Assembly: GCA_963732855.1 (NCBI GenBank)
Contig: CAVTBB010000003.1
Coordinates: 7,019-71,018 of the forward strand
Source of the DNA: an uncultured Methanomassiliicoccales archaeon
Lineage (GTDB): Archaea; Thermoplasmatota; Thermoplasmata; Methanomassiliicoccales; UBA472
Reading direction: 5' to 3'
DNA: 64,000 nucleotides
The stretch's first letter is position 1. Each line of letters begins with the position of its first letter. Below the pieces are notes generated by a model. It was not told the origin of the DNA and ran no database searches. It saw nothing but the letters and a program-made list of their open reading frames with translations. Made by a program: the position numbers and the translations under genes. Positions 3-57,255 of the stretch are shown piece after piece.

Positions 3-380
3 GTGGACGAGCCTGTGCTCTTCCGGCAGCTGAAGGGAGGCGAGGCTTACAATGATGCTTTCCACAAGCGAGTGGACGTGCGCCTGGCAAAGGAGTTCGG
101 CAAAGACCCTGGAACGTTGATCAGGGCGGGGGTGCGGCTCAGGGGCTCGATCAGGTCGAAAGGAAGCGCCTCGGTCGAGCTACTGCTATTCCCAAAGGTC
201 CCGGTCACGGTGATCGTGTGGCAGGGTGATGACGAGATCCCGGCATCATCCACGGTCCTGTTCGACCGCAGCATCGGCGATATCTTACCAACAGAGGACG
301 TAGCCGTGGCTGGCTCGTTCATCGTCGAGAAGCTCATCATAGCGAAGGCGGAGACATCGGTCGTTAATACAGACCAGTGA
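3..380 (+). CDS. DUF3786-like protein, C-terminal part (5' end lies outside the window)
   Basis: The ORF is open from the window edge. Its C-terminal pattern (LLLFPKVPVTVIVWQGDDEIPASSTVLFD ... LPTEDVAV) resembles DUF3786 proteins from anaerobic C1 gene clusters. The family assignment is from memory and has not been searched. Confidence 0.45.
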   Translation: MDEPVLFRQLKGGEAYNDAFHKRVDVRLAKEFGKDPGTLIRAGVRLRGSIRSKGSASVELLLFPKVPVTVIVWQGDDEIPASSTVLFDRSIGDILPTEDVAVAGSFIVEKLIIAKAETSVVNTDQ

Positions 381-2037
381 TGTAACCCTCGTCGCTTATG
401 TCGATGCCTAACGCCGAAGGGTCGGACGATAATCCAGGCATGAGCATGATGGGACCACACACCACCACAATGAACCCTGCACCGGCAGACACGAACACTT
501 CCCTGACGTTCAATACCCAGCCGGTCGGAGCGCCCTTGAGCTTCGGATTGTCGGAAAGAGACAATTGTGTTTTGGCCATGCAGACCGGCAGACGGTTCGT
601 CCCGGAGGTCTCGATCAGATGGATCGCCTTCTCCGCTCCACTCTCGTATTGGACGTCCAATGCGCCGTACATCTCGGAGGCAACGATACGGATCTTCTCC
701 TTAAGGGGTAGTTTCGTATCGTAAAGGAAACGGAAATTCGGGCGCTCGTTCTCCAGGACATCCAGCACCTGCTTCGCCAGATCCGCCCCGCCCTCACCGC
801 CCCTGGAGAACACATCGGACAGTGCGCAGCGGACCCCTTTGCTCTTACAGTGATCCAATACGATCTGGATCTCCTCATCGGTGTCAGCGGCGAAATGGTT
901 CAACGCCACCACCATAGGGATGCCGAACTTGCGGATGTTCTCGATGTGCTTGTCCAAGTTGGCGAAGCCCCGCCTTAGCCCGTCGCAATCCTTCTCGCAC
1001 ACCCTGTCCACCGGGACGTTCCCATGCATCTTTAGTGCACGGATCGAGGCAACGATGACAGCGCAGTCCGCGTGGATGCCTTCGTTGCGGCATACTATAT
1101 CGAAGAACTTCTCCGCACCCAGGTCGGCGGCGAAACCCGCCTCGGTGACGACGATGTCGGCCATCTTGAGGGCGTATTTTGTTGCGGTTATCGATGAATT
1201 GCCGTGCGCGATGTTGGCGAAGGGAAAACCATGGATGAAGAAGGGTTCGCCCTCAAGGGTCTGGACCAGGTTCGGGAATATGGCATCCTTCAGTAGAAGG
1301 GCCAATGCGCCAACGCATCCGAACTGAGCGACGGTGACCGGTTCTCCATCATATGTGTAGGCCACGATCATCCTTCCCAGGCGTTCCTTCAGGTCCGCCA
1401 TCGAGGTGGCGAGTGCAAGTATGGCGCTGATCTCCGTCGCCACCGTGATTATGAAACCGCTCTCATGTGGGGTCCCGCCCTCGGTTCGGCCCCCCAATCC
1501 GACCACGATATGCCGGAGCTCGCGGCAATTCATGTCCATCGCCTTGCGCAGGACGATCCGGGTGGGATCGACGTTGAGCTGGTTCCTCTTGGTTATGCTA
1601 TTCTCCAGGATCGCCGAGAGCAGATTGTTGGCAGCTCCGACCGCGTGTATGTCGCCGGTGAAATGCAGGTCGATGTCCCACATCGGGTAGACCTGCGAAT
1701 ACCCTCCGCCGGTGGCGCCCCCCTTGATACCGAAGGTGGGTCCGAGCGACGGTTCGCGGATCGCTCCCATTACCCGCTTATTGAGCCTGCCTAATGCCTG
1801 CACCAGACCTATGGTGGTGACGGTCTTGCCTTCTCCAGCCGGCGTGGCGGTGATCGCGGTCATAAGGACCAGCTTTCCGACCGGGTAGCCGTCGAACTTC
1901 CTTAGGACGCTCAAAGGCACCTTGGCCATGTACTTACCGTATAGGACGATGTCATCCTTGTCCAGGCCGATCGATGATGCGATCTCCTCAATAGGCTTGG
2001 CTTTGACTTCTTGAGCGATCTCGATGTTGGTCTTCAT
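364..2037 (-). CDS. fhs: formate--tetrahydrofolate ligase
   Basis: The 592-aa ORF is full-length FTHFS-like from its internal Met (MKTNIEIAQEV...). It carries TPAGEGKTVTTIGL, and from the ATG at 2037 it is 557 aa. The 35 upstream codons look non-conserved. Confidence 0.93.
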   Translation of the reverse strand: MKTNIEIAQEVKAKPIEEIASSIGLDKDDIVLYGKYMAKVPLSVLRKFDGYPVGKLVLMTAITATPAGEGKTVTTIGLVQALGRLNKRVMGAIREPSLGPTFGIKGGATGGGYSQVYPMWDIDLHFTGDIHAVGAANNLLSAILENSITKRNQLNVDPTRIVLRKAMDMNCRELRHIVVGLGGRTEGGTPHESGFIITVATEISAILALATSMADLKERLGRMIVAYTYDGEPVTVAQFGCVGALALLLKDAIFPNLVQTLEGEPFFIHGFPFANIAHGNSSITATKYALKMADIVVTEAGFAADLGAEKFFDIVCRNEGIHADCAVIVASIRALKMHGNVPVDRVCEKDCDGLRRGFANLDKHIENIRKFGIPMVVALNHFAADTDEEIQIVLDHCKSKGVRCALSDVFSRGGEGGADLAKQVLDVLENERPNFRFLYDTKLPLKEKIRIVASEMYGALDVQYESGAEKAIHLIETSGTNRLPVCMAKTQLSLSDNPKLKGAPTGWVLNVREVFVSAGAGFIVVVCGPIMLMPGLSSDPSALGIDISDEGYITGLY

Positions 2038-2181
2038 TGGCTCCACCCTGCGGATGGACAGGTATACGGAACTGCGTCTTAATAGTTGGACATCGACCTT
2101 TCGTGAACCTGACCAGCAGTCCCGATAGGGGGCATCGAACATTTATTATTTAGCGGGTGGATAAGGTGGCGCCGTGAACTC

Positions 2182-3072
2182 ATGACCGCCAGCATGATCC
2201 AAGGAAAGCCCATCGCCGACGAAATCAGGAAGGAACTGAGGGAAAGGATCGCGATCTTGAGGGATAAGGGCGTGGTCCCGGGATTGGCGGTCGTTCTGGT
2301 CGGGGACGATGCCGCCTCGCAGACATACGTCCGTATGAAAGGCAAATCCAGCGAGGAACTGGGCATGTATTCACAGACGATCATTAGGCCCAGGGACCTT
2401 TCCGAAGAGAACCTGCTCCGGCTGATCGACGAGCTCAACGCCGATCCCCGGGTCCATGGCATCCTGGTCCAATTGCCGTTGCCGCCCCATATCGATGAGC
2501 GGAAAGTGCTCATCCGCATCGACCCGGGGAAGGACGTGGACGCGTTCCATCCGTTCAATGTGGGAAAGATCCTGATCGGTGACCAAACCGGTTTTCTGCC
2601 TGCCACGCCCTATGGGATCCAGGAATTGCTCATCCGCAGCGGGAACGCGCCGTCCGGCAAACACGTGGTCATCCTGGGAAGGAGCAACATCGTGGGGAAG
2701 CCTTTGGCGGCGATGCTGATGCAGAAGGACGAGCGGGCCAACGCCACGGTCACGGTCTGCCATTCCAAGACCGAGGGCCTAGCAGATATCACCCGCAGCG
2801 CTGACATATTGATCTCTGCGATGGGGGCGGGGGCCTCGTATGTGACGGCGGACATGGTCAAACCCGGTGTGGTCGTCATCGACGTCGGTTCGAACCGGGT
2901 TCCAGATGACAGCTCTCCCCGGGGCTATCGCCTTGTTGGGGACGTAGATTTCGATTCGGTCAAGATGACGGCCGCTGCCATAACGCCCGTCCCGGGAGGG
3001 GTGGGTCCGATGACCATAGTCATGCTCATGCGCAACACCGTCAAGGCGGCGGAGATGATGCTGGAACGATAA
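2182..3072 (+). CDS. folD: bifunctional 5,10-methylene-THF dehydrogenase / methenyl-THF cyclohydrolase
   Basis: The 296-aa product has FolD motifs LAVVLVGDDAASQTYV, ILGRSNIVGKP and PVPGGVGPMT. It is divergent from fhs. Confidence 0.93.
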   Translation: MTASMIQGKPIADEIRKELRERIAILRDKGVVPGLAVVLVGDDAASQTYVRMKGKSSEELGMYSQTIIRPRDLSEENLLRLIDELNADPRVHGILVQLPLPPHIDERKVLIRIDPGKDVDAFHPFNVGKILIGDQTGFLPATPYGIQELLIRSGNAPSGKHVVILGRSNIVGKPLAAMLMQKDERANATVTVCHSKTEGLADITRSADILISAMGAGASYVTADMVKPGVVVIDVGSNRVPDDSSPRGYRLVGDVDFDSVKMTAAAITPVPGGVGPMTIVMLMRNTVKAAEMMLER

Positions 3073-7204: not shown

Positions 7205-7900
7205 GTGCCAAGGCACGTGGCCATCATCATGGATGGTAACCGCCGTTTCGCCAAGGAGTTTGGCCTCAGCACCACAGAGGGCCACATCAAGGGCAAGGAC
7301 AAGCTGGAGGAGGTCATGGAATGGTGCCGGGAACTGGGAATCAAGATCCTGACGGTTTATGCCTTCAGCACCGAGAACCTCAACCGGGATTCGGACGAGA
7401 TCGAGTACCTGATGAAGCTGTTCGAAGACAACTTCAGGCGGCTGGCTACAGATGAGCGGATCCATAAGTACCATATTCGGATTACCGTGATCGGCCAGAG
7501 GGAGCTGCTCCCGAAAAGGGTACAGAAGGTCATCGAGGAGGCAGAGGAAGCCACCAAGGAGTATGACTCATACTTCTACAACATCGCCATCGCCTATGGC
7601 AGCAGACAGGAGATCATTCAGGCCATCAAGCAGATTGCCGAGGCGGTGAAGGACGGAAGGATGGAAGTGCAGGATATCGACGAAGAGGTCTTTTCCAAGT
7701 ACCTCTACACCGCCGATTTCCCCGACCCAGACCTGATCCTGCGTACCTCCGGGGAAGAACGCATATCGAACTTCCTGCTCTGGCAACTGGCATATGCCGA
7801 GCTGTACTTCACCGACGTTTACTGGCCCGGATTCCGAAAAGTGGATTTCATGCGGGCTATCCGTTCATACCAACTGAGACAACGTCGCTTCGGCAAGTGA
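7205..7900 (+). CDS. uppS: cis-prenyltransferase (undecaprenyl/di-trans,poly-cis-prenyl diphosphate synthase)
   Basis: Motifs HVAIIMDGNRRFA and RTSGEERISNFLLWQLAYAELYF are present. The coordinates use the first canonical start (GTG 7205). UppS-like sequence continues in frame upstream to 7106; see findings. Confidence 0.88.
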   Translation: MPRHVAIIMDGNRRFAKEFGLSTTEGHIKGKDKLEEVMEWCRELGIKILTVYAFSTENLNRDSDEIEYLMKLFEDNFRRLATDERIHKYHIRITVIGQRELLPKRVQKVIEEAEEATKEYDSYFYNIAIAYGSRQEIIQAIKQIAEAVKDGRMEVQDIDEEVFSKYLYTADFPDPDLILRTSGEERISNFLLWQLAYAELYFTDVYWPGFRKVDFMRAIRSYQLRQRRFGK

Positions 7901-10274: not shown

Positions 10275-11267
10275 TTAGCCAGCCATTTGGTGTGAACGGA
10301 GGTGCGCAGCGGTTTGAAGATCTCTGCGTTTCCAAGTCTCCTCATAGGCCATTAATGGAAGGCCCTTCAGGGCCGTGTCGGCGGCAGCCTGGCCGGCGAT
10401 ACGCCCGCAGATCATCGAGATCGGGATGCCTCCGCCGTTCACCGCCATGACCTGGCCGGCCGCATCACCGACCACGAGCGAATCGCCGATGACCGTCCGT
10501 TTGATCGGACCAGACATGGGGATCAGCTTGCCCATCGGCTTTTCCGTGCTCTTGATATTCTTGAGCTCCAGGAACCGATCGAAATATTCACCTACTGGCA
10601 TCCGGGAGAACCTCCGGGCCACACCTAGTCCAACGTTCGCGCCACCCTTCTTTGGCAATATCCATGCATAGCCACCGGGCGCGACGGTACCGAAATACAT
10701 CTCCGGGATCGGCTCGAACTCCCCTTTCACCTGGATCGAGACTCCCGGACAGAGGTCGGTAGAACGACCATATCCCAGGCTCTTACCTACCAAGGACAGT
10801 GGGCCGTCAGCGCCAACGATCACCTTCGCCTCTATGTCCATCTCAGGCGTGGATACCACTTTGCCAGCTACCTTGGTGCATTGCAGGCCGGTCCGTAATT
10901 CGGCCCCTGCTTTCACCGCTCTTGAGGCAAGATATTGGTCGAACCGGGCTCGGTCCGTCGTGTAACCGGCAAAGGGGACCTCCCAGGGTCTCAATTTCGG
11001 TGAGTAGATGCGAATAATATCGGTGGTAAGTGAATGAAGGTCCGCGGGTATGTCAAACAGGCTGTCCAGATCGGTCGCTCTTGGGAATATGTCCTTCATT
11101 TCCTCGACCGCCGGCATGAACTCGCCGCATCGAACCGGGATCCCGACCTGGGGCCTCTTCTCCAATATCAAAACGCTTGCGCCTTTTAGCGCTGCATGCT
11201 CGGCAGTAGTGCTCCCTGCCGGACCGGCCCCGACGACCACCACATCCACCTTGACAATTTTGGCCAT
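10275..11267 (-). CDS. geranylgeranyl reductase family FAD-dependent oxidoreductase (C-terminus apparently frame-disrupted)
   Basis: The N-terminus has the FAD fold motif VVVVGAGPAGS, followed by GGR-like core motifs. The ORF ends early at 330 aa. A +1 frame continues for ~55 codons to a TAG at 10175. Confidence 0.85.
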   Translation of the reverse strand: MAKIVKVDVVVVGAGPAGSTTAEHAALKGASVLILEKRPQVGIPVRCGEFMPAVEEMKDIFPRATDLDSLFDIPADLHSLTTDIIRIYSPKLRPWEVPFAGYTTDRARFDQYLASRAVKAGAELRTGLQCTKVAGKVVSTPEMDIEAKVIVGADGPLSLVGKSLGYGRSTDLCPGVSIQVKGEFEPIPEMYFGTVAPGGYAWILPKKGGANVGLGVARRFSRMPVGEYFDRFLELKNIKSTEKPMGKLIPMSGPIKRTVIGDSLVVGDAAGQVMAVNGGGIPISMICGRIAGQAAADTALKGLPLMAYEETWKRRDLQTAAHLRSHQMAG

Positions 11268-11312: not shown

Positions 11313-12278
11313 TCAGGACTTCCTTTCTAGGATCGCCTTGGTGAGCTCTTTCAGGGCCTCTTTGTACTCCGAAGGTCTTAGGACCTCCAGATCAAGGAGA
11401 GCCCTGTTGGCGTATTCCTCGGCCATGTCCGATGATGCGCTCAGGGCATCAGTCCTCTTAATCAGAGCTATCGCCTCGGCGACCTCGGCAGGACTTTTCT
11501 TATCCTTTCTGAAGATCTCCTTAATGCGATCGCCATGGGTCCTGTCCTTCATAGCGATGATGAGCGGGAGAGTGGGCTTGCCGTCTATGATGTCGATCCC
11601 GTGAGGCTTTCCCAACGTTACCTCATCGCCGGTGACGTCCAGGATGTCATCGACGATCTGGAAGGCGATGCCGACGTTGAGGCCATAGCTGCCCATGGCC
11701 TCCATGACCGCAGGGGATGCGTCCGCCAGATAGCTACCTACCCGAGCCCCTGCCTCGAACGGTCTTGCCGTCTTCCCTTCGATGATGCTAATGTAGACAT
11801 CGATGTTGGTGTCCTGGTCATGCTCGTAGTCGCTCTGAAGTATCTCCGATTCGGCGAGCGCTGTGCACGCATCGGCCACCACACCGATGACCTTCTCATC
11901 AAATGCTCCACCTAGTGCAAAACTTTTTACAAATAGGAAATCGCCTGCGATAAGCGCCTTCTGCGTGCCATACTTCTTGTATGCCGCCTGCCTGCCTCGC
12001 CGCATCTCTCCGCGATCATTGATGTCATCATGAATGAGAGTGGCGCTGTGAATCAGTTCGAAGGCGGATGCGACCTTGATGACCTTCTCTGGGTCCATGC
12101 CACCGGTCGCCTTGAAAATCAGTAATGCCACAGCCGGACGCATTCTCTTGCCGCCTGAGGTGATGATGTAGTTGCTGATCTCGGTGAGCAATGGTTGTTC
12201 AGAATGAACACTTTCGCGGAGTTGCTCCTCGACCATCCTGAGTTCATTCTGGACGGGAGCATCCCAGGTTGAAACCAT
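11313..12278 (-). CDS. trans-polyprenyl diphosphate synthase (IdsA family)
   Basis: The 321-aa product has the first Asp-rich motif LIHDDINDRGEMRRGR and the second FQIVDDILD. Confidence 0.88.
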   Translation of the reverse strand: MVSTWDAPVQNELRMVEEQLRESVHSEQPLLTEISNYIITSGGKRMRPAVALLIFKATGGMDPEKVIKVASAFELIHSATLIHDDINDRGEMRRGRQAAYKKYGTQKALIAGDFLFVKSFALGGAFDEKVIGVVADACTALAESEILQSDYEHDQDTNIDVYISIIEGKTARPFEAGARVGSYLADASPAVMEAMGSYGLNVGIAFQIVDDILDVTGDEVTLGKPHGIDIIDGKPTLPLIIAMKDRTHGDRIKEIFRKDKKSPAEVAEAIALIKRTDALSASSDMAEEYANRALLDLEVLRPSEYKEALKELTKAILERKS

Positions 12279-12492: not shown

Positions 12493-13155
12493 ATGCTATA
12501 CGTAGGACTGGACGTACATAAAGAATTTTGTCAGGCAATCAAGAACAAGGTCCATGCCGAACTGACCAGGAGAGGCATCCGAAGGCCGGATTCGTTCTCA
12601 AAACCGTTCACGAAAAAATCGGTCGAGTGGATGAGATCGCTCAACATTGTCACGATCACCGCCAACCTGGATTGCATCCAGGCAATCCAGGGACAGATAG
12701 AATCGATGAACGAGAAGTTGTATGTGGAGTATCAAAAGAGACCTGAGGCGCAACTGATCTCGTCATTCCCTGGCATCGGATATTACGGAGCTTTGCTGAT
12801 CTGGGCGGAGATCGCCGACATCCACCGTTTCCCGGACCCGGAGCATCTCAGCTCCTACGCCGGGCTGACCCCGACGGTCAGCCAGTCGGCGTCGACCGTG
12901 CATTACGGGGCGATAAGCAAGGAGGGTTCGAAGCACCTGCGATGGATCCTGACCGAATCGATCTACACTCACAAACGATACAATCCGGACAGCCAGCTAT
13001 CGAAGTTCCACTCCAAGGTCGAGAAGAAAAGAGGAAAACAGAAGGCCACGATGGCAGCAGCTCGGAAGCTGCTGCACGTCCTGTTCTGGATGCTCCAGAA
13101 CAACGAGCCCTATCACAGTCATGGATTCAACCCCGTGCACAAACCTGCGGCCTAG
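12493..13155 (+). mobile_element. IS110-family transposase remnant with internal deletion of the catalytic DEDD domain
   Basis: The N-terminal MLYVGLDVHKEFCQA (start of the DEDD domain) joins directly to the KNKVHAELTRRGI linker and the Transposase_20 part (SFPGIGYYGALLIWAEIADIHRF, YAGLTPTVSQS). It is 220 aa against roughly 350-400 aa for intact family members. Confidence 0.8.
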
Positions 13156-13356: not shown

Positions 13357-14838
13357 CTACGCGAAGAATGCCGCGGCCGCCTGCTGAGCAGCATTGAAGA
13401 ACGGGTCTGGCCAAATACCGATCAGGACCACAGCGAACACGCATATGGCGACTGCCGCTGCCATCGAGATCGGAATCTTGACCTTCTCGGTTGGGGTGCC
13501 CTCTTCCGCATCGTCCACGTACATGTACTTCACGATCCTTGCATAATAGTACAAGGAGATAGCGCTGTTGATGATGGCGGCAACAGCCAGCCACAGCATC
13601 CACTCGCTTCCCGGTACCACCGATTGTTGGATCGGGGATGAGAACAGGACGAATTTCGAGAAGAAACCAGCCAATGGCGGTATCCCTGCCAACGAGAATA
13701 GCATCACGGCCATGCCGAGGGCCATGAAAGGAGCCCGTTTGGCTAGTCCCTTGTAGTTGCTGATCGTCTCACCGATCGCCACCGTCGCCAGCGTGGCCAC
13801 GATGATGAACGCCCCTCCCTTCATGAAGGCGTGGGTCATTATCTGCATTATGCCTGCCGACAAAGCATACTCAGTCCCTACCGAGACCGCGATCAGGATG
13901 TAACCCGCCTGTGCGATGGACGAATACGCGAGCATCCTCTTGATGTTGGTCTGGCTTATTGCCGCCAGGTTGCCGACGGTCATCGTCGCAATTGCCACGA
14001 TGCCGATCATGATCTCCCAGTTGGACTTTATCGCGAACAATCCGATGAGGAGCACTTTGAACAGCGCGATGAACCCCATCTTCTTGCTGCCTGCGGCCAG
14101 CATTGCCGTGACCGTCGTTGGTGCGCCCTCGTATACATCGGGGGCCCACATATGGAAGGGGACGATCGCAACTTTGAAACCAAAGCCCGCGACGATCATG
14201 ACCAGCGCCAAGAATATCACCGACTGCATCGGCGAGTTCATGGTAACCGCCTGAGCCACACCGGCGAACGAGGTCGTGCCGGCCACTCCATACAGTAAGG
14301 ATATGCCGAACAGGGCTAGGCCGGACGACATACCGCCGATTATGAAGTACTTGACCGCCGATTCCGCTCCCTTTTCATCTTTCTTCCTGAAAGCCACCAG
14401 GGCGTACGAGGATATGCTGGTCAGTTCGATACCGACGAACAGCGTGATCAGGTCGGTGGAACTTGCCACGATCATCATTCCGACGGTGGCGATCATGATC
14501 AGGGAGTAGAACTCCGGCTGGTGTTTATCCTCCTGGATGAAGCGCGCAGAAGCCAGAATGACATAGAACGCCACTGCTAGGAAGATCATCATGAACAGCG
14601 CAGAGAACTGGTCTAGCTTGAGCAGGTTCCCGACGAAATATATCCCGGCGTTGTTGTTGTAGACGAACCAGAAGGCATCGGCGAAAGCCAAGCCCACACC
14701 CACGAGCGAGAACGCCGCGCATACCTTGCTGCTGCTCTTGGACAGCAGGCCGACCGCCGGCACCAGTATGGCGAACAGCGCCAAAAGGACCTCTGGACGG
14801 ATTGCTTCAATGTCGATCATCTTAAGCGCCCCCCACAA
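13357..14838 (-). CDS. nuoN: Fpo/Nuo complex subunit N
   Basis: The 493-aa polytopic antiporter-like subunit is the last gene of the operon. Confidence 0.9.
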   Translation of the reverse strand: MWGALKMIDIEAIRPEVLLALFAILVPAVGLLSKSSSKVCAAFSLVGVGLAFADAFWFVYNNNAGIYFVGNLLKLDQFSALFMMIFLAVAFYVILASARFIQEDKHQPEFYSLIMIATVGMMIVASSTDLITLFVGIELTSISSYALVAFRKKDEKGAESAVKYFIIGGMSSGLALFGISLLYGVAGTTSFAGVAQAVTMNSPMQSVIFLALVMIVAGFGFKVAIVPFHMWAPDVYEGAPTTVTAMLAAGSKKMGFIALFKVLLIGLFAIKSNWEIMIGIVAIATMTVGNLAAISQTNIKRMLAYSSIAQAGYILIAVSVGTEYALSAGIMQIMTHAFMKGGAFIIVATLATVAIGETISNYKGLAKRAPFMALGMAVMLFSLAGIPPLAGFFSKFVLFSSPIQQSVVPGSEWMLWLAVAAIINSAISLYYYARIVKYMYVDDAEEGTPTEKVKIPISMAAAVAICVFAVVLIGIWPDPFFNAAQQAAAAFFA

Positions 14839-16318
14839 CGATGGTTGTCAGTATTTTGACCGACGGCGTGATGTAGTCGAACATCAGCGCCGGCAGCATA
14901 CCGAAAAGAACGATCAATGCTGATAGAACGGCCAACGGTGCAGCCTCGAACCAGGAGAGATCATGTATGTGTTCCGTATCGACCTCTTTGGTCAACGGAC
15001 CGAACAAAGTCTTCTGCATCGCCCAGATGTAATAAGCAGCGGTGATGGCGACGCTTATTATGGGCAAGAGCAGGAGCCATCCGAACGAGTCGAACGTCGC
15101 CGTGAACACCGCGAACTCAGCCAGGAACCCGACCATGCCAGGCAGACCTAGCGAGGCCATGAAGCCGATCATCATGAAGACGGCCGCGAAAGGCATCTTG
15201 GCTGCCAGTCCACCGAGCCTCGGCATGTTCCTGGTTCCAACATGGTGCCCGACGATTCCGGCCATCATGAACAGGACGGCGGCGATCAGGCCATGCGCGA
15301 ACATCTGGAACACTGCGGCGGCGATGCCAAGTTCACCCAGTGTGGCGATTCCCAGCATCACTATGCCCATGTGGCTGATGGACGAGTAGGCTATCATCTT
15401 TTTCAAATCCTTCTGTGCCAGGCACATTATCGCCCCGTAGAGGATCGAGACGATGGCGATTATCACCATCACGATCTGGTACTGGTTGGCCCCATAAGGC
15501 AACGTTGGCAGGCAGATCCTTATGATACCGTAGGAACCCATCTTAAGCAACAGGCCCGCCAGCAGAACCGACCCTGCGGTCGGGGCCTCGACGTGCGCGT
15601 CCGGAAGCCAAGTGTGGAAAGGCACCATCGGCATCTTGACGATGAATCCGAAGAACAACGCCCCGAACACCACCAATTGGAAGAACTGACCGAACTGTCC
15701 GGACACCGACGCGATTGCCTGCATGTCGAACGTGGCATGCGCCAAGTGCGGCGCCGCCTCGAAGTAGAGCGCCAGTATGCCCAGCAGCATCACCAATGAT
15801 GCGATATGGGTATAGATGAAGAACTTGATCGAAGCATATGCACGCCTCGGACCTCCCCATATAGCTATGAGGAAATACATCGGAATCAGCACGACCTCCC
15901 AGAAGACGTAGAAAAGGAAGTAGTCCATCGATGTGAACACCCCCATCACTCCGACCTCCAGGATGAGCATCAGGCCCATGTACTGGTGTGTGCGCTCTTC
16001 CACATCCCAGGAGAACAGGATGGCGAGGAAAGAGAGCAGCGTGGTCAGGAAGACCATCGCTATGCTGATGCCGTCCAAACCAACCGAGTAGGATATGCCC
16101 AGAGTCGATATCCAGGTGAAGCTCTCAACGTACTGGAACGCTCCTATTGTCAGGGTGAACTCGGTCAGCAACAGGACGGACAATGCCAGCGGTACCGCGG
16201 AGAATACCAGGGCAACGATCTTCGATGCTTTCGGATACTTGCCCAGCATGAAAGAGACTATCGCACCGATCAACGGGATCAGTATGAGCAGCGTGATTAT
16301 GGGTATGTTTTGCAGCAT
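14822..16318 (-). CDS. nuoM: Fpo/Nuo complex subunit M
   Basis: The 498-aa antiporter-like subunit has HVEAPTAGSVLLAGLLLKMG. It overlaps nuoN by 17 nt. Confidence 0.92.
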   Translation of the reverse strand: MLQNIPIITLLILIPLIGAIVSFMLGKYPKASKIVALVFSAVPLALSVLLLTEFTLTIGAFQYVESFTWISTLGISYSVGLDGISIAMVFLTTLLSFLAILFSWDVEERTHQYMGLMLILEVGVMGVFTSMDYFLFYVFWEVVLIPMYFLIAIWGGPRRAYASIKFFIYTHIASLVMLLGILALYFEAAPHLAHATFDMQAIASVSGQFGQFFQLVVFGALFFGFIVKMPMVPFHTWLPDAHVEAPTAGSVLLAGLLLKMGSYGIIRICLPTLPYGANQYQIVMVIIAIVSILYGAIMCLAQKDLKKMIAYSSISHMGIVMLGIATLGELGIAAAVFQMFAHGLIAAVLFMMAGIVGHHVGTRNMPRLGGLAAKMPFAAVFMMIGFMASLGLPGMVGFLAEFAVFTATFDSFGWLLLLPIISVAITAAYYIWAMQKTLFGPLTKEVDTEHIHDLSWFEAAPLAVLSALIVLFGMLPALMFDYITPSVKILTTIVVGGA

Positions 16319-16324
16319 TTCAGA

Positions 16325-18382
16325 TCACCCCAGTACCTTCAAGACGAACCCAAGCACGTATAGCAGCACGATCAGGCCGACGATGCCGCCGATGACCACT
16401 GCGCTGTAGCTCTGTACCAGTCCGGTCTGCATTTTTCTCATCAACTTTCCGCCTCCGACGAGACCGCGGCTTATCAGGTTTACCAGGCCATCGATCACAT
16501 TTCGGTCGAACCAGTCGAGTACGAGCGAGAACCCGTACACGACCTTCTCGCCGAAGTAATCGTAGCCCTTGGTGAATCCGTACCTCTTCAACAGCATGTT
16601 GTACAGAGGCCTAACGAATGGCTTGCTGGCGATCGCACCGGCATCGATCTTCTTCTTGTAGAAGGTGAAGTACGCTAGTGCAATGCCCGCAATGGCCACC
16701 AATATTGAGACGTAGGTGAGCCAGTTTCCTAGGACCTTGTCCAGACTGAAGGCTTCGGGGAACTCACCGGCGAAGATCGTAGCCGAGAACCCTGCTCCGA
16801 TGAACACGACCAGACCGGAGCCGAAGGCAAGTATCGCCAGTATGACCAGCGGGCCAAGCATGACCCAGGGTGCCTCGCGGTGCGCGTGGACATCGGCCTC
16901 GTGGCCGTGCTCATCAGCGTGCGCCCCAACATGTTCGCCCTTGATTTCGGTGGCGTGTTTGGTCGCCTCTCCCTCTTCACCCGCGAAGGTCATGAACCAC
17001 ATGCGGAACATGTAGAACGCCGTCATGAAGGCTGTAGCAACGCCCATCAGCCAGAGCAGCATGAACACCCAGTGATCCGTCGACGCTTCGAATACGCTCG
17101 CCAATATCTCGTCCTTGGACCAGAAACCGCTTAGTATCGGTATACCGGCTATTGAGAGCGAACCGATGAGCATCACCACCGAGGTGACCTTCATGTGCTT
17201 TCGCAACCCTCCCATGAGCTTCAGCTCTTCGGTGTGGACGAAGTGAATGACCGCACCCGCTGAAAGGAAGAGCAGAGCTTTGAAGAAGGCATGGTTCATC
17301 AGATGGAACATGCCGGCGGCGAATGCGATGCTTCCTGCCGCCATCAAGGCCTCGTCACCATGCTTGAAGCCGATCCCGAACAGATATGCGCCTGTACCGA
17401 GCGACAGGAACATGTAGCCCAGTTGGCTGATGGTCGAGTACGCGAGGACGCGCTTGATCAACGGCGAGTTGAGCGCCATCGTGGAGGCCATCAATGCCGT
17501 GACACCGCCGATTATGGCGATGAACAATCCCATGTCAGGGACGAAGATCAGCAGTGGGAACATCCTAGCTACGAGATAGACGCCTGCCTTGACCATGGTC
17601 GCCGCATGAATAAGTGCGGACACCGTGGTCGGGCCTTCCATGGCATCTGGCAACCAGTCATGCAGCGGGAACTGTGCCGACTTACCGATCGAGCCGCCGA
17701 ACATGAAGAACAGGCCGAGGGCCAGCATTCCCTGGTCAACGCTCGCTATGATCTCCTGGTTGAACAGCGTGTGGAAATCGAGGGTCTTGAAGGTGGTCAA
17801 CAGCACGATCAGGCCGACCATGAACATGACGTCCCCGATCCTGGTGACGAGGAACGCCTTCTTAGCTGCCGATGCGGCCGACGGTCTCTCGAACCAGAAG
17901 CCGATGAGCAAGTAAGAACAAAGACCCACCAGCTCCCAGAATATGAACAGCTGCAGGAAGTTGTTCGCCAGTACCAGCCCGAGCATGACGCCTACGAACA
18001 GGCATATCTCGGTGTAGTAGCGGCGCCTCCTATCCCCCTGATCGTGCATGTACCCGATAGAGTAGATGACGACCAGAGCAGCGACGAACGAGACCACTAT
18101 GAGCATCAGGGCGGTTACGGTGTCGATATAGATACCGAGATCAAGGTTGTAACCCCCGATCGATACCCAGGTCATGCTCTGCTCAAAGTAATTTAGATGA
18201 CCTTCGAAGCCGACTGTGAGCGCCTCAAAGGCGACCAGCAGGGACAGCACCATCGCGCTTCCGACGCCGGCGATCGCGACGACCCCGCCCTTGTCCTTCA
18301 TCTTGCCGCCGAGGAACCCGACGATCAGGAACGCGACGAGCGGCAATAATGGGATGATCCACGCAAGTTCATATATCTGCAT
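16325..18382 (-). CDS. nuoL: Fpo/Nuo complex subunit L
   Basis: The 685-aa subunit has WLPDAMEGPTTVSALIHAATMVKAGVYL and a long C-terminal extension typical of NuoL. Confidence 0.92.
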   Translation of the reverse strand: MQIYELAWIIPLLPLVAFLIVGFLGGKMKDKGGVVAIAGVGSAMVLSLLVAFEALTVGFEGHLNYFEQSMTWVSIGGYNLDLGIYIDTVTALMLIVVSFVAALVVIYSIGYMHDQGDRRRRYYTEICLFVGVMLGLVLANNFLQLFIFWELVGLCSYLLIGFWFERPSAASAAKKAFLVTRIGDVMFMVGLIVLLTTFKTLDFHTLFNQEIIASVDQGMLALGLFFMFGGSIGKSAQFPLHDWLPDAMEGPTTVSALIHAATMVKAGVYLVARMFPLLIFVPDMGLFIAIIGGVTALMASTMALNSPLIKRVLAYSTISQLGYMFLSLGTGAYLFGIGFKHGDEALMAAGSIAFAAGMFHLMNHAFFKALLFLSAGAVIHFVHTEELKLMGGLRKHMKVTSVVMLIGSLSIAGIPILSGFWSKDEILASVFEASTDHWVFMLLWLMGVATAFMTAFYMFRMWFMTFAGEEGEATKHATEIKGEHVGAHADEHGHEADVHAHREAPWVMLGPLVILAILAFGSGLVVFIGAGFSATIFAGEFPEAFSLDKVLGNWLTYVSILVAIAGIALAYFTFYKKKIDAGAIASKPFVRPLYNMLLKRYGFTKGYDYFGEKVVYGFSLVLDWFDRNVIDGLVNLISRGLVGGGKLMRKMQTGLVQSYSAVVIGGIVGLIVLLYVLGFVLKVLG

Positions 18383-18383
18383 C

Positions 18384-18686
18384 TTACCACCTCATGGAGT
18401 TGAGGTCCTCTACGTGGACCGTGTCCTTCAACCGGTTCAGGTTCAGCAATATTGCCAGACCCACAGCGACCTCGGCCGCCGCAATGCCGATCGAGAACAG
18501 CGCGAACATGTAACCGGACGGGTCATTGTTGTACGCGGCGAACGCGACGAAGTTGATGTTCGCGGCGTTCAGCATTATCTCTATCGACATGAGCACGATG
18601 ATGGCGTTCTTCTTGGTGAGCACACCTATGATCCCGATGACGAACAGGATCGACGACAATATCAGGAAGTATTCCAGGGGGATCAT
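18384..18686 (-). CDS. nuoK: Fpo/Nuo complex subunit K
   Basis: The 100-aa, 3-TM product has the AAAEVAVGLAILL motif. Confidence 0.9.
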   Translation of the reverse strand: MIPLEYFLILSSILFVIGIIGVLTKKNAIIVLMSIEIMLNAANINFVAFAAYNNDPSGYMFALFSIGIAAAEVAVGLAILLNLNRLKDTVHVEDLNSMRW

Positions 18687-18937
18687 TGTTCTTCCTCCTG
18701 CGCGATGAAGACACCTGCGATCATGGCGGAGAAGAGCAGCAGCCCCAGTACCAAGACCACGATGCCGTATTGACCGAACAGTATCGTTCCGAATTGAGCG
18801 GTAGTGAACTGCGCTATCGGTCCGCTCGGCCAGGTGACCGTGAGGAGGGACGCGCCCATGAACACCAGCAGCACTGCCGCGAGGATCGTTTTACCGATCG
18901 CGTTGCCTATGCCTTGACTCTTACTCACAGGCACCAC
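18683..18937 (-). CDS. nuoJ: Fpo/Nuo complex subunit J, C-terminal half (J2)
   Basis: The 84-aa membrane protein continues NuoJ. A GGAGG sequence sits just upstream of its GTG codons. Confidence 0.7.
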   Translation of the reverse strand: MVPVSKSQGIGNAIGKTILAAVLLVFMGASLLTVTWPSGPIAQFTTAQFGTILFGQYGIVVLVLGLLLFSAMIAGVFIAQEEEQ

Positions 18938-19187
18938 CTCCGGTCAGGCGTCTCTTGGTCAGCATGACCCCGAACAGGATCAGCACGTTAATCGCTCCCA
19001 CGTAGACAAGTACCTGGATGAGTCCAATGTACTCCGCGTTCAGGAAAAAGAACGTGACCGCAACCCCGATGAACGAGATGGCTAGGTAGAAGACGCTACG
19101 GACGATCTCCTTGGTGATCAGGACGGATATGGCGGCGCCGACGGTTATACCGGCAACGGCCAGGAATACGATCTCAGACAGATCCAT
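18921..19187 (-). CDS. nuoJ: Fpo/Nuo complex subunit J, N-terminal half (J1)
   Basis: The 88-aa product has AEYIGLIQVLVYVGAINVLILFGVML, the conserved NuoJ core. Confidence 0.8.
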   Translation of the reverse strand: MDLSEIVFLAVAGITVGAAISVLITKEIVRSVFYLAISFIGVAVTFFFLNAEYIGLIQVLVYVGAINVLILFGVMLTKRRLTGGGACE

Positions 19188-19931
19188 TTACTTCGCCTCC
19201 TTCATGGACAGGCAGTCCTTCGGACAGACATCTACGCACATCTCGCATGATACGCATTTGGAGTTGTCGAAGACCGGCCTCTTTATCGGCTTCTTGGTCT
19301 TCTCATTGACCTCGCCTGTATCGGTCATCTTGACCGCACCGGCCGGACAGGTCTTCTCACAGCGGCTGCAGGAGATGCACCTCTTGGCATCCAGGATCAC
19401 AGTGTCCTTGAGCGTCATGGAGCCCTTCTTGGACGGGACTGCGTCCCGCCCTGATGGCAGGACCTCCTCGTAGTTCACCTCATATCCCGGCCTGGATTCG
19501 AATTGCAGTTTCATAGGGTCATAGACCAGTTCTTCCCTGGTGTAGGAAGCGAGCTCGAACTCGGGCGTCACGATCATGGCGTTGGTGGGACAGACCTCGG
19601 CGCAGTAGCCGCACATCATGCACCTTCCTACGTTGATCTGGGGCCTCTTGACCTTGCCCAAGGTCTCATGCTCGATCTGTACCATGGTGATGCAGGTGGT
19701 CGGGCACAGCTTGACGCATTTCTGGCAAGCGATGCACTTTTCCAGCACGATGCCTGGGCGTCCCCGGAAGCACTCGGGAAGGACGTTCTTCTCCCAGGGG
19801 TACATGACCGTGTTCGGCCTGCGCCCCGGGAGGGAGGTCTTGACCATTGTCTTGAAAGTCAACCACAGGGGCTTGATAATGTATCCAGTGGCCCTCAGCT
19901 TCTTCCGTTCGGGATTTTGTGTGGCGTCCAT
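19188..19931 (-). CDS. nuoI: Fpo/Nuo complex subunit I fused to an extra C-terminal 2x[4Fe-4S] ferredoxin domain
   Basis: The 247-aa product has four CxxCxxCxxxCP motifs: CIACQKCVKLCP, CMMCGYCAEVCP, CISCSRCEKTCP and CVSCEMCVDVCP. Canonical NuoI has two. Confidence 0.9.
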   Translation of the reverse strand: MDATQNPERKKLRATGYIIKPLWLTFKTMVKTSLPGRRPNTVMYPWEKNVLPECFRGRPGIVLEKCIACQKCVKLCPTTCITMVQIEHETLGKVKRPQINVGRCMMCGYCAEVCPTNAMIVTPEFELASYTREELVYDPMKLQFESRPGYEVNYEEVLPSGRDAVPSKKGSMTLKDTVILDAKRCISCSRCEKTCPAGAVKMTDTGEVNEKTKKPIKRPVFDNSKCVSCEMCVDVCPKDCLSMKEAK

Positions 19932-19932
19932 C

Positions 19933-21030
19933 TTAGAACCACCCCATTGCCTTCAATGACACGGCCACGACCAGGTTTATGACCGCCAGCGGGAGCAGCC
20001 TCTTCCAGCCGATCTTTAGGATCTGGTCGGTCCTGATACGGACCATCGCTGCCCTGACCCAGATCATAATGAAGAAGACGAAGAACGTCTTCAGCAGGAA
20101 CCACACCTCTGGCCACAGGAACGGACCATCCCAGCCCCCCAGGAACAGGATTGCGATGAGAGCACTGGCGATATACGCCCTTAGATAGTCGCTGAGCATG
20201 ATCAGGCCCCAGCGGAACCCACCGTACTCGGTCTGCCAACCTTCCACCAATTCTGCCTCAGCTTCGGGCAGGTCGAACGGAACCCTTTCGGATTCGGCTA
20301 TGCCGCAGGTAAAGAAGGTCACGAATCCTATGAACAGCGGGATGAACAGCCAAAGATGGGCCTGTTGGTATCCCACTATCTCATTGAAGTTCAGGCTCCC
20401 GGTCATTATGACTACGCTGACGACGACCAGGAGCAGAGGCACCTCATAGGCTATGAGCTGTGCCGCCGCACGCATACCGCCGATGACAGTGTACTTGTTG
20501 TTGGATGCCCAACCGCCGATCAGGATGAAGAACGGGGCGAGCGAGAACACGGCCAACCCGATCAGGAGGCCCAAGGGAACGTTGGCGACGAAGAACCGGT
20601 CGCTCCACGGGACCAACCCGAGGAGCAGTGCGGAAGTGGCTATGATACCAACCACAGAGTATGTGTAAAGCCTTTCGTCGGCCTCTTTCGGGATGATGAT
20701 CTCCTTGACCATCGTCTTAATTCCGTCTGCGAAGTTCTGGAACAGGCCAAGCATACCGACCTGTGTGCCGCGCCGGTCCATGATACGCCCGAGGGTCTTC
20801 CTCTCTTGCCAGATGACGGTCAGACCAACCAGGAACGCAGCGACGAAGAATATGACGCAGGTGAGCACGATGGACAGGAAGTTGACCGGACCTCCGGTCA
20901 CTGCCCAATCACCGATGAATTGGATCTCATTTATTCCGGTGAGGCGGATGATCCATTGAGCGACCTCTCCGATCCAAAAGGACAGGCCGTGCATCAATGA
21001 GAATAACGTGGTGTCTGCCATGTGGATCAC
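19933..21030 (-). CDS. nuoH: Fpo/Nuo complex subunit H
   Basis: The 365-aa polytopic product has ERKTLGRIMDRRG and PFDLPEAEAELV motifs. Confidence 0.92.
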   Translation of the reverse strand: MIHMADTTLFSLMHGLSFWIGEVAQWIIRLTGINEIQFIGDWAVTGGPVNFLSIVLTCVIFFVAAFLVGLTVIWQERKTLGRIMDRRGTQVGMLGLFQNFADGIKTMVKEIIIPKEADERLYTYSVVGIIATSALLLGLVPWSDRFFVANVPLGLLIGLAVFSLAPFFILIGGWASNNKYTVIGGMRAAAQLIAYEVPLLLVVVSVVIMTGSLNFNEIVGYQQAHLWLFIPLFIGFVTFFTCGIAESERVPFDLPEAEAELVEGWQTEYGGFRWGLIMLSDYLRAYIASALIAILFLGGWDGPFLWPEVWFLLKTFFVFFIMIWVRAAMVRIRTDQILKIGWKRLLPLAVINLVVAVSLKAMGWF

Positions 21031-22109
21031 CTATCCGTCTCGCCGAGGCACATGTCCACTGAACCCATGATCGCAGGGACATCTGCCATTTTCTCCCCGC
21101 GCAATGCAACGGGCATCGCGGAGACGGTCACGAATATGGGAGACCGTACCTTTAGCCTGTATGGCTTGCCGCTCCCGTCACTTATGATGTACATGAGACC
21201 CTCGCCTCGTGGGTCCTCAACGTGTGCGAACGCCCTTCCCGCGGGTGCGGTCTTCGGGGTCTTGACCCGGACCGGCCCTGGTTTCATCTTGGTGAACGCT
21301 TGCCTGACGATCCTGCAGGACTGGCGCATCTCCTCGATCCTTACCCGGTACCGGGCGTATGAATCGCAGTCGGGATGCGTGCAGACATCGAAGTCCACCT
21401 CCGCATACTTCTCGTACGGGTCATCCCGGCGAAGATCGAAGTCGACGTTGCTGCCCCTCATGTTCGGACCAGTGACACCAAGGTTCATGGCTTGGGCGGC
21501 GGTCAGCTTGCCGACGCCCTGCATCCTCATCAGGAATGATTCGCACTCATCGCAGAGAATCTCGTAATCGTGTATGCGCTTCTCCATGAGCGTCACCACG
21601 CGAAGCGTATCCCTCTCCCAGTTGGCCGGGATATCGTTCCTTACACCGCCAATCCTGGTGTAGTTGTAGGTCATCCTGGCGCCGCAAAGATCGTTCATGA
21701 GGTCCATTATGAGCTCTCTTTCCCTCATGCAGTAAAGGAAAATAGTGTACGAGCCGAGATCGGTCCCAACTGCTGCCAGCCACATTAGGTGCGAAGAGAT
21801 CCTCTGCAGTTCGATGGTTATGACCCGGATCCATTGTGCCCGGTCCGGGACCTCGAGCTCCATGACCTCCTCGACCGCCCTACAATACAGATGGGACCAA
21901 GTGAGCGATGCACCGTAACATAGACGGTCCGCCATCGGGATGATCTGCTGGAAGTCACGGCTCTCGACCATCTTTTCCCAGCCGCGGTGCAGGTAACCGA
22001 TGATCGGTTCCGCCTCGGTGATGATCTCTCCGTCCAGCTTGACCCGGAGGTTCCACAATCCATGAGTCATCGGGTGCTGCGGACCCATGTTTACCCACAT
22101 TTCTGTCAT
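21027..22109 (-). CDS. nuoD: Fpo/Nuo complex subunit D
   Basis: The 360-aa product has NMGPQHPMTHG, GYLHRGWEKM and a C-terminal GETDR. Confidence 0.93.
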   Translation of the reverse strand: MTEMWVNMGPQHPMTHGLWNLRVKLDGEIITEAEPIIGYLHRGWEKMVESRDFQQIIPMADRLCYGASLTWSHLYCRAVEEVMELEVPDRAQWIRVITIELQRISSHLMWLAAVGTDLGSYTIFLYCMRERELIMDLMNDLCGARMTYNYTRIGGVRNDIPANWERDTLRVVTLMEKRIHDYEILCDECESFLMRMQGVGKLTAAQAMNLGVTGPNMRGSNVDFDLRRDDPYEKYAEVDFDVCTHPDCDSYARYRVRIEEMRQSCRIVRQAFTKMKPGPVRVKTPKTAPAGRAFAHVEDPRGEGLMYIISDGSGKPYRLKVRSPIFVTVSAMPVALRGEKMADVPAIMGSVDMCLGETDR

Positions 22110-22595
22110 TTAAATCCGCCTCCCGACCTCGTAGTCCTTCCGGAGTGGGAAGAACGTGTAATCCTGCGGAAGGAGAATCCTCTCCAGGCGCGGGTGTCCT
22201 TTGAAGATGATACCGAACATATCGTAGGTCTCGCGCTCATGCCAGTCCGCCCCACCATAGAGAGGTGTAATGGAATCGATCTCGGGAACGTCCCTCGGGA
22301 CGTCCACGGTGATCTGGGCTACGATCTTGTTCGCGTATGATGACATGTGGTAGACGACCTGGAAAGTAGTCTTCATGTCGACGCCGGACACGCTGGAGCA
22401 ATGCTCGAACTCCATCTCGTCCTTCATCTTCATGATCAGCTCCAGGAATACTGACCGGTCGACGTTGAAGAAGACCCGCCTGGGTTTCGTCTGCAGGTCG
22501 GTCATTTTGTCCTTGAACTGCTCGGTCAACGCCTTTGCGACCATCTCCTCTGTCATGGTCTTTGCCTTCGGGGTAGTCTCGGTCAAATTTCCCAC
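22110..22595 (-). CDS. nuoC: Fpo/Nuo complex subunit C
   Basis: The 161-aa product has ADWHERETYDMFGIIFKGHP. Confidence 0.9.
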   Translation of the reverse strand: MGNLTETTPKAKTMTEEMVAKALTEQFKDKMTDLQTKPRRVFFNVDRSVFLELIMKMKDEMEFEHCSSVSGVDMKTTFQVVYHMSSYANKIVAQITVDVPRDVPEIDSITPLYGGADWHERETYDMFGIIFKGHPRLERILLPQDYTFFPLRKDYEVGRRI

Positions 22596-22596
22596 C

Positions 22597-23125
22597 TCAG
22601 TCCAGGAATGTTCCTTTCTGTTCCGCCGTTATCTTACGGTTCAGTTTCATGAAGCCATCGATCATGGCCTCAGGCCTTGGCGGGCAACCGGGGATGTATA
22701 TGTCCACTGGGATGAATGTATCAAGTCCCTGGATGACGTTGTACCCGTCATACCATGGTCCGCCGGAGATCGCGCACTCGCCCATCGCGACGACCCACTT
22801 CGGCTCAGGCATCTGCTCATATAACCTCCTCAGGGAGGGCCGGAGCTTGGCGGATATCCAACCATTTACGAGAAGAACATCGCTCTGTCTCGGGGATGAC
22901 CGATCGAATCATTCCCAACCTTTCAGCGTCCCATCGGCATGCGGAAGCGGCGGCCATCTCAAGCGCGCAGCAGGCGATTCCGAAGTGGAGCGGGTAAATG
23001 GCATTCCTCTGACCCCAGGCCCAGATCGGTCCGGTCAACCTGTCGATGGCCGGCTTGATGGGGGGAGTTCTCAGGGTTTCCACGACAAAATTGCTGGACC
23101 ACTGTTGGAATTCCTTGGCGGTCAT
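22597..23125 (-). pseudogene. nuoB: Fpo/Nuo complex subunit B, interrupted by a single-base frame shift (a sequencing error is possible)
   Basis: The N-terminal half (MTAKEF...LHFGIACCALEMAAASACRWDAERLGM) is in one frame. The C-terminal half ([46 protein letters not shown]...PGCPPRPE) is in another, and they join near 22909. The span is 529 nt, which is 3n+1. Confidence 0.88.
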
Positions 23126-23148
23126 GGCGATTGCTTGCGGGGCATGGC

Positions 23149-23526
23149 TTAGATCCAAAGTATGACCTCCTTCTTGAGGGCGTAATAGACACCGACCAAC
23201 AGTATTGCCAGGAAGGCGACCGCGGACACCATGGACATGCCGAGCATGTCGATGGTCGAGAACAATGACGAATAGGTCAAAGCCCATACAAGCAAGAAAA
23301 CAGTGACGATATCAAAAACAACGAAGATGATAGCATAGACGTAGAATTGTACATGAAACTGGATTTGCGCTTGTCCTATGGGCACTTCACCGCACTCGTA
23401 GGTGGTCTCCCTAAGAGTACTGTACTTCGTTGGTCTGAAAAACCGTGACACGTAGAAGGCCAGTACTGGGAACAATATCGCTACCAGTGCGAATATGGCA
23501 ATGGGATAATATTGGTCTATGAGCAT
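23149..23526 (-). CDS. nuoA: Fpo/Nuo complex subunit A
   Basis: The 125-aa, 3-TM product has YECGE and is the first gene of the operon. Confidence 0.88.
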   Translation of the reverse strand: MLIDQYYPIAIFALVAILFPVLAFYVSRFFRPTKYSTLRETTYECGEVPIGQAQIQFHVQFYVYAIIFVVFDIVTVFLLVWALTYSSLFSTIDMLGMSMVSAVAFLAILLVGVYYALKKEVILWI

Positions 23527-56911: not shown

Positions 56912-57255
56912 ATTCGTTGATGCCGCGGAAAGGAGTCCGTTTTTCCCAGTTCGGGTTGAGGAATTGAACCCAAATCGACGTTCTGTTCCTTTTTCATCGC
57001 TATCTTTTGACGAGGGGGGATGACCCATCCTGAACATCGGTGAATCAGTTGCCGATCTTGGAACCACTGGAAAGAAAAATGACAATGGCTCGCCGGAGCA
57101 ACTCCCCCCCTTGCATATGAACGGAAGTATAACGATCCTCTGTAACATCATATTGATCGCCATCGACCTCTGCTAACTGTAGCCTATAGAAAAATGATTC
57201 CGGAAAAAGTCATGAGGAAATGGTTTCTGGTAAATCGTTGGATAGGCTAGCCCAT

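Follow-up and report, generated by a model that had tools for sequence, protein, structure and literature searches.

Why should the ferredoxin-like subunit of a complex I homologue carry four iron-sulfur cluster motifs? The question is raised by the nuoI (fpoI) gene of an uncultured Methanomassiliicoccales archaeon, located in a 64-kb stretch of contig CAVTBB010000003.1 (the window, meaning the whole 64,000 nucleotides analysed). The open reading frame (ORF) occupies 19188..19931 of the minus strand, 744 nucleotides (nt) that encode 247 amino acids (aa) plus a stop. A regular-expression scan of the translation found exactly four CxxCxxCxxxCP motifs: CIACQKCVKLCP (residues 66-77; 19701-19736, minus strand), CMMCGYCAEVCP (residues 104-115; 19587-19622, minus), CISCSRCEKTCP (residues 185-196; 19344-19379, minus) and CVSCEMCVDVCP (residues 226-237; 19221-19256, minus). 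Such a four-motif architecture is far beyond chance. It agrees with an initial interpretation made from the letters of the DNA (the sequence-only reading), which had placed the canonical pair at about residues 66-76 and 104-114 and had noticed two further motifs in a C-terminal extension. The extension corresponds to the 3′ third of the ORF (19188-19484), which covers residues ~150-247 and the stop codon.

The four motifs are divided between two domains, all coordinates being on the minus strand. A predicted N-terminal helix (residues 14-33; 19833..19892; AlphaFold2 secondary structure) resembles the amphipathic N-helix of NdhI/NuoI, which in NdhI lies along the membrane subunits (PMC6992706). 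It precedes the NuoI core (residues 37-142; 19506..19823), which was delimited by the TIGR01971 profile and by matches to NdhI and NuoI chains in the PDB, and which holds the equivalents of the two canonical clusters N6a and N6b. A conserved linker of 33 residues (143-175; 19407..19505), evident from alignment and AlphaFold2 model, then leads to the extra C-terminal 2x[4Fe-4S] ferredoxin domain (residues 176-247; 19191..19406), recognized by Pfam, by similarity to MvhB and FwdF and in the AlphaFold2 model, with a beta-hairpin insert between its motifs. Pfam detected Fer4 in four stretches (E 4e-23) and placed the dicluster models Fer4_7, Fer4_9 and Fer4_21 both on the core and on residues 180-243. 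Together, the four motifs and the two-domain architecture suggest that the subunit should bind four cubane clusters.

Only the first half resembles NuoI specifically. The NCBIfam NuoI model TIGR01971 scored 152.2 bits against a cut-off of 113.05 over residues 37-142, and a sequence search of the PDB matched residues ~17-156 to NdhI, NuoI and NDUFS8 chains. For residues ~176-247 the top PDB matches were the repeat units of polyferredoxins, namely MvhB (9sw6_G; best repeat 33 bits, total 111 bits) and FwdF (80 bits). Sequence identity between the extra domain and the core of the same protein is 31% (E 8e-12); polyferredoxin repeats and the NuoI-like chain of MBS (6u8y_N) are about equally close to the extra domain.

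The sequence-only reading had further suggested that this was a distinct architectural solution and had called for a survey of NuoI lengths and cysteine motifs. A search of 5.8 billion protein clusters (E <= 1e-10) returned 177 relatives. All 120 of the homologues listed contain four motifs; they are 229-260 aa long, 46-91% identical to the query and aligned over 91-100% of it, and the organisms named are mostly Methanomassiliicoccales, Methanomassiliicoccaceae or Methanomethylophilaceae. Scanning GTDB r232 with one genome per species confirmed 153 encoding loci, of which the best 80 were examined. In each of these the tblastn match reaches residue 241-247 (245-247 in 79 of them), and nearly all carry the name of Methanomassiliicoccales or of one of its families; the labels of a few are wider or evidently reflect mis-binning. 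The closest species genome is a Methanomassiliicoccales metagenome-assembled genome (MAG) with 93% identity (L001). Across 119 aligned sequences (A2; 45-91% identity) all 16 cluster-ligand cysteines and the four motif prolines are invariant, and the linker residues E151, S160 and D176 are conserved at 90% or more. The extra domain is thus present, fused, invariant in its ligands, order-wide and part of an operon-encoded subunit. Judged from these comparisons, all Methanomassiliicoccales species examined have kept the extension, as have related archaea. It is no peculiarity of this genome but the usual state in the order, and versions with four or six clusters occur in other Thermoplasmata.

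This conservation bears directly on the concern that the extension might be an artefact, that is, a read-through, an assembly fusion or a false ORF call that merges nuoI with a separate ferredoxin gene. One probable error of the sequencing type, an insertion of 1 nt in nuoB, is indeed present in the window, and at one relative's locus the length of the nuoI match is not a multiple of three. However, the same continuous ORF is found in the best 80 species genomes, which stem from many unrelated studies and assembly programs, and likewise in the 120 protein clusters; the linker is conserved, and neither a stop between the two domains nor a separate ferredoxin gene occurs among the relatives examined. 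The only short forms, P0125, P0126 and P0129, diverge abruptly into nonsense sequence and are consequently frameshifted or truncated fragments; as candidate split-gene relatives they were rejected. We therefore consider an artefact vanishingly improbable, and the test by which the sequence-only reading proposed to expose a read-through or fusion left the domain standing. The deviating nuoI match (L051, 4001-4742; 742 nt) lies in a 90%-identical MAG, and its length suggests an assembly indel error, not a biological difference.

An AlphaFold2 model built from the 119-sequence alignment reached a mean predicted local distance difference test score (pLDDT) of 85 and a predicted template modelling score (pTM) of 0.70. 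Both ferredoxin-like halves had pLDDT values of 88-95, and 10-residue blocks across residues 141-180, including the linker, averaged 77-91. When the model was compared with the PDB using Foldseek, the N-terminal half alone aligned to NuoI and NdhI chains, with query-normalized template modelling scores (TMq) of at most 0.38. The whole model aligned to FwdF over ~208 columns with a TMq of 0.24-0.26 and a root mean square deviation of 22-24 Å, a value that indicates a different arrangement of the domains. No Fpo complex was among the PDB matches of either the sequence search or Foldseek.

Where the extra domain sits can be approached by analogy. In the PDB sequence alignment, the extension starts at the residue equivalent to the beginning of the E. 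coli NuoI C-terminal tail (residues 139-180), and this tail runs over NuoG, NuoE and NuoF, on the N-module side (PMC8357420). The ferredoxin bound to cyanobacterial NDH-1L sits on the NdhI hairpin, its cluster 9.6 Å away from N6a (PMC6992706), which makes this face the natural site for electrons to enter. The path of the E. coli tail and the docking of ferredoxin on NdhI make it likely that the extra domain is located at the distal, N6a-facing surface. The similarity to the E. coli tail is one of starting point and course; that extension contains no cofactors, adopts an extended conformation and is purely stabilizing (PMC8357420), whereas the one described here has cluster motifs.

Comparison with other characterized systems places the subunit between known types. 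With canonical NuoI, Nqo9, NDUFS8 and NdhI it shares the TIGR01971 score, the PDB matches, the N-terminal helix, a pair of motifs separated by a hairpin and the gene position between nuoH and nuoJ; it departs from the subfamily's feature of exactly two [4Fe-4S] clusters (N6a and N6b), since a linker and a second dicluster domain bring the predicted number to four. Methanosarcina FpoI, which works with FpoF and FpoO, is likewise a complex I homologue of an archaeal methanogen with the same operon logic. It is described, however, by a two-cluster model of 135 positions (NF040612), for which the window protein scored 98.1 bits, below the equivalog cut-off of 180, and the window protein occurs without FpoF and FpoO. 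The headless 11-subunit complexes, cyanobacterial and chloroplast NDH-1 and Methanothrix Fpo, have in common with the window complex the absence of an NADH or F420 module, and ferredoxin is their presumed donor at the NuoI/NdhI face (PMC6992706; PMC7374477). NDH-1 binds ferredoxin through the cluster-free subunits NdhS, NdhV and NdhO and the NdhI hairpin, whereas the tail of the window protein is itself predicted to be a cluster-binding domain.

The closest likeness to the extra domain is found in MvhB and FwdF, which are built of the same 2x[4Fe-4S] dicluster-plus-hairpin unit, with a hairpin of roughly 25-30 residues between the motifs, and which serve as intramolecular electron wires between enzyme modules. 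These are stand-alone or dedicated subunits with 8-14 clusters, whereas the window protein has one extra unit fused to NuoI; it is not a polyferredoxin in the sense of a stand-alone protein with at least four tandem dicluster units. A functional parallel is offered by E. coli formate hydrogenlyase, whose NuoI homologue HycF was matched in both the PDB sequence search and Foldseek. There the chain is extended from HycF to the substrate-oxidizing module by HycB (PDB 7Z0S), a separate ferredoxin-like subunit with four clusters. This is functionally what we propose for the fused domain, although HycB is a separate protein with four clusters and a defined partner (FdhF), and the window domain is covalently fused with two. 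Methanothrix FpoI has a Lys-rich tail that is free of clusters.

To see how far four-cluster NuoI extends, the protein was scored against 1.84 billion representatives at 50% identity. Consistent with two clusters being the canonical state, as the sequence-only reading had assumed, 100 of 149 further representatives have exactly two motifs and are ordinary NuoI homologues. About 20 further NuoI-type clusters have four (P0124, P0127, P0128, P0130, P0131, P0133, P0136-P0139, P0141, P0144, P0145, P0153 and others), and some have more, for example P0122 (317 aa) and P0132 (514 aa). A profile search started from distant four-motif proteins retrieved many more, the named ones being 'Thermoplasmata archaeon' or 'Thermoplasmatota'. 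We also scored the core by itself (residues 1-145). All relatives with at least 110 bits, truncated fragments aside, have four to six motifs, whereas the best full-length two-motif NuoI reached 102 bits. The nearest non-methanogenic relatives (P0317, P0294, P0292, P0300 and P0122) are proteins of 300-327 aa with three dicluster domains, the third being inserted at the position of the window protein's linker. They are encoded at loci that show synteny with the window, where nuoN is followed by genes for polyprenyl synthase and geranylgeranyl reductase, and PIN_6, ThiI and exosome ECR1_N genes lie nearby. Core-only scores, motif counts and synteny together indicate that in Thermoplasmatota extended NuoI proteins form a graded series, with two, four or six clusters, to which the window protein belongs.

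At three loci of these nearest non-methanogenic relatives, L081 (8001-8909), L088 (10001-10978) and L090 (10001-10906), six motifs were counted in NuoI with one motif relaxed. The gene of 300-327 aa there encodes what amounts to a mini-polyferredoxin inside an otherwise ordinary 11-subunit operon. A different, cofactor-free extension of the same C-terminus was seen in the two-cluster proteins P0146, P0147 and P0150, which have low-complexity tails rich in Lys, Pro, Ala and Glu (for example KKEPAKEAAKEPAKEPAK...).

What might the extra domain do? The window has only the 11 core nuo genes; the operon contains no nuoEFG, fpoF or fpoO, and no FrhB/FpoF-like ORF was found in the 64 kb, so that the absence of an input module noted in the sequence-only reading is upheld. 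Published Methanomassiliicoccales genomes are also without fpoF and fpoO, and the gene is annotated there as fpoI (PMC4153887). We propose, giving it an even chance of being correct, that the extra domain would act as a built-in electron-transfer adaptor linking the complex to a soluble low-potential partner. It would be seated on the distal face of the Q-module beside the N6a-equivalent cluster, the place where NuoG, FpoF or soluble ferredoxin docks in other enzymes. Low-potential electrons would then pass from the soluble partner through the extra clusters to N6a, and the chain would be lengthened from three clusters (N6a-N6b-N2) to five. In Methanomassiliicoccales the partner would presumably be reduced ferredoxin made by the bifurcating MvhADG/HdrABC complex. 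The resemblance of the domain to the electron-wire repeats of MvhB and FwdF speaks for an adaptor. Reviews state that ferredoxin is oxidized by membranes of M. luminyensis via the Fpo-like complex, and ferredoxin-dependent, ion-translocating activity of these membranes is reported in work that PMC7374477 cites. Within the extra domain, eight basic positions are conserved across the family and could form a docking patch for an acidic ferredoxin.

In one clade, which includes P0153 and was recovered on three independent contigs, nuoABCDH is followed by a nuoI for a compact four-cluster protein of 211-219 aa; next come a gene of the FrhB/FpoF type, encoding 346-350 aa, and nuoJ1J2KLMN. The nuoI and the FrhB/FpoF-like gene lie at L083 8001-9673, L086 6001-7685 and L087 4818-6556. 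A four-cluster NuoI encoded directly before an FpoF-like protein fits a connector between N6a and an input partner, and most simply the extra domain in this clade connects an F420-type input subunit to N6a.

Several observations nevertheless count against an adaptor for ferredoxin. The two-cluster NuoI/NdhI already takes electrons from ferredoxin (PMC6992706), so that in principle the extra clusters are not needed for this. The mean net charge of the extension across the family is -1.6. In the window protein the 'Lys-rich' description of the extension is moderately apt (14 Lys in 105 residues, 13%, net charge +3), but as a family-wide feature a strongly basic docking tail is ruled out by this mean. 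Foldseek found no solved structure in the PDB with the same two-domain arrangement. The frameshift in nuoB means that function of the complex in this particular genome is not guaranteed. Finally, of five related Thermoplasmata loci with extended NuoI, four have an HdrD-like gene next to it, so that HdrD might be the partner instead of, or alongside, ferredoxin; the neighbourhoods of relatives point at least as much to an HdrD-like protein as to ferredoxin. Of the earlier proposal of an electron entry wire or docking site, what holds is that the domain is a genuine, selected part of a subunit in a complex without an operon-encoded input module. It is not simply a substitute for that module, because it coexists with an FpoF-like subunit and because two-cluster NdhI oxidizes ferredoxin.

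The HdrD-like neighbours lead to a competing view, in which the extra dicluster domain would be an output or partner wire to HdrD: it would dock a soluble HdrD-type heterodisulfide reductase and carry electrons between the Q-module and the HdrD clusters, making the complex the proposed energy-converting ferredoxin:heterodisulfide oxidoreductase. The literature model indeed combines the Fpo-like complex with HdrD, the physical link being not known (PMC7374477; PMC6019823). Upstream of nuoA, at a distance of a few kb, the six-cluster loci L081 and L088 have an HdrD-like gene (Fer4_8 + CCG), accompanied in L088 by genes for GlcD-like FAD proteins; at the six-cluster locus L090 an integrase/MCM element occupies this place. 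Two further loci share a conserved cluster of nuoB, four-cluster nuoI, FeS_assembly_P, a gene of no assigned family and an HdrD-like gene (CCG) within ~2.5 kb of nuoI (L082 7367-12531; L089 9376-13512). No nuoC, nuoD, nuoH or membrane subunit genes were found near these two clusters, which from their gene content may encode a soluble NuoB-NuoI-HdrD electron-transfer module. Such a role in the window complex is harder to maintain. No HdrD-like ORF was found anywhere in the 64-kb window, and a table in PMC4153887 lists hdrD accessions for published genomes of the order that do not adjoin those of fpo. An exit at the distal end would moreover bypass N2 and the Q-site, the ion-coupling region in all characterized relatives, and the FpoF-linked clade pairs the extra domain with a partner of the input type. 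On balance we think a wire to HdrD somewhat unlikely. A mainly structural or regulatory role is quite improbable. The domain could in that case stabilize a small peripheral arm, or be an off-pathway reservoir or redox sensor like N7 or N1a; the purely stabilizing extension of E. coli NuoI (PMC8357420), the existence of off-pathway clusters in complex I and the evolutionary plasticity of cluster number, seen in relatives with two, four or six, all lend it some credit. Such a role is hard to reconcile with ligands that are invariant over deep divergence: the eight extra cysteines and both prolines do not vary in 119 sequences down to 45% identity, and the ligands are retained in distant lineages, with 24 invariant Cys columns in an alignment that includes them (A3). 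The same type of domain is, furthermore, an electron wire in MvhB and FwdF.

A broader claim can be built on the same material, namely that polyferredoxin-like NuoI proteins, with four clusters in Methanomassiliicoccales and six in non-methanogenic Thermoplasmata, define a distinct class of complex I-like enzymes in which the extra clusters physically connect the Q-module with a soluble partner, be it a disulfide reductase of the HdrD type or some other protein. We regard this as speculative and unlikely. Were it true, it would supply the structural link for the long-postulated energy-converting ferredoxin:heterodisulfide oxidoreductase, and the nuoB-nuoI-hdrD clusters of L082 and L089 would be a minimal soluble form of the module.

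The nuoI gene is embedded in a tightly packed 11-gene operon, nuoABCDHIJ1J2KLMN (13357..23526, minus strand), in which no gene of the core complex I set is missing and J is split. The encoded 11-subunit complex is a complex I-like ('Fpo-like') ion pump. Reading in the direction of transcription, all on the minus strand, the genes are nuoA (23149-23526), nuoB (22597-23125, frameshifted near 22906-22908), nuoC (22110-22595), nuoD (21027-22109), nuoH (19933-21030), nuoI (19188-19931), nuoJ-N (18921-19187), nuoJ-C (18683-18937), nuoK (18384-18686), nuoL (16325-18382), nuoM (14822-16318) and nuoN (13357-14838). A single base separates the nuoH stop from the nuoI ATG, and the nuoJ-N ATG immediately follows the nuoI stop. 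This gene order is repeated in L001, L081, L088 and L090, and nuoI occupies the slot between nuoH and nuoJ in these four loci and in L084 as in the window. The two short overlapping ORFs that make up nuoJ encode 88 and 84 aa (18683-19187, minus). The same split into two Oxidored_q3 genes was seen in L081, L083, L088 and L090, while L084 has an unsplit nuoJ of 160 aa; split nuoJ is entered as fpoJ N and fpoJ C in PMC4153887.

All operon genes other than nuoB are intact in the window. Compared with the relative L001 (93% identical), where the gene is intact and forms a single ORF of 229 aa, nuoB has a 1-nt insertion near 22906-22908 (GGAATGATTCGATCGG in the window, GGAATGA-TCTACCGG in L001) and is divided between two reading frames. 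The N-terminal frame ends ...ERLGMI, and the C-terminal part restarts at RSSPRQSD in the other frame. This is probably a sequencing or assembly error, the alternative being a pseudogene.

Some of the surrounding genes are of interest in their own right. Downstream of nuoN a truncated transposase of the IS110/IS116/IS902 family (12493-13155, plus strand; 220 aa), in which the Transposase_20 domain alone scores, separates nuoN from the polyprenyl synthase gene, whereas the two genes adjoin in L081, L088 and L090. Genes for isoprenoid or lipid-carrier synthesis lie near the operon, encoding a cis-prenyltransferase (7205-7900), a geranylgeranyl reductase (10275-11267) and the polyprenyl synthase (11313-12278), with a UbiA prenyltransferase farther away (55904-57163); the nuoN genes of L081 and L090 are followed directly by those for polyprenyl synthase, UbiE and geranylgeranyl reductase. 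This clustering hints that a membrane-soluble carrier is made for the complex. The window also encodes bacterial-type folate C1 enzymes, formate-tetrahydrofolate ligase and FolD (364-3072), and a 652-aa protein of the prismane/CO-dehydrogenase family (57917-59875). The CO dehydrogenases in this family are known to reduce ferredoxin.

The Fpo-like complex of the order has been discussed repeatedly. Borrel 2014, Kurth 2020, Loh 2021, Yan & Ferry 2018, Zinke 2020, Chadwick 2022 and a 2024 preprint on extracellular electron transfer treat it without the extra FpoI clusters, and we found no mention of these in the literature searched, which did not cover key primary papers and so leaves an earlier remark possible. 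The NuoI subfamily is known and the sequences have long been public; in databases the extended protein appears under names as different as '4Fe-4S binding protein', 'formate hydrogenlyase subunit 6' and 'NADH-quinone oxidoreductase subunit I', which is a warning to annotators. The extra fused dicluster domain is real and conserved and hints at a mechanism, though it does not make a new category of protein, and its function is proposed here from comparison.

Methanomassiliicoccales are major methyl-reducing methanogens of the gut and of wetlands, and the Fpo-like complex is their sole membrane-bound energy-conserving device. How this complex takes up electrons from ferredoxin, and whether it transfers any to HdrD, is an open question (PMC7374477; PMC6019823), for which two absolutely conserved extra clusters on the electron-entry subunit are a concrete and testable structural clue. 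Beyond the order, the series of two-, four- and six-cluster NuoI proteins, with its FpoF- and HdrD-linked contexts, provides a comparative framework for how complex I-like enzymes gain new electron partners.

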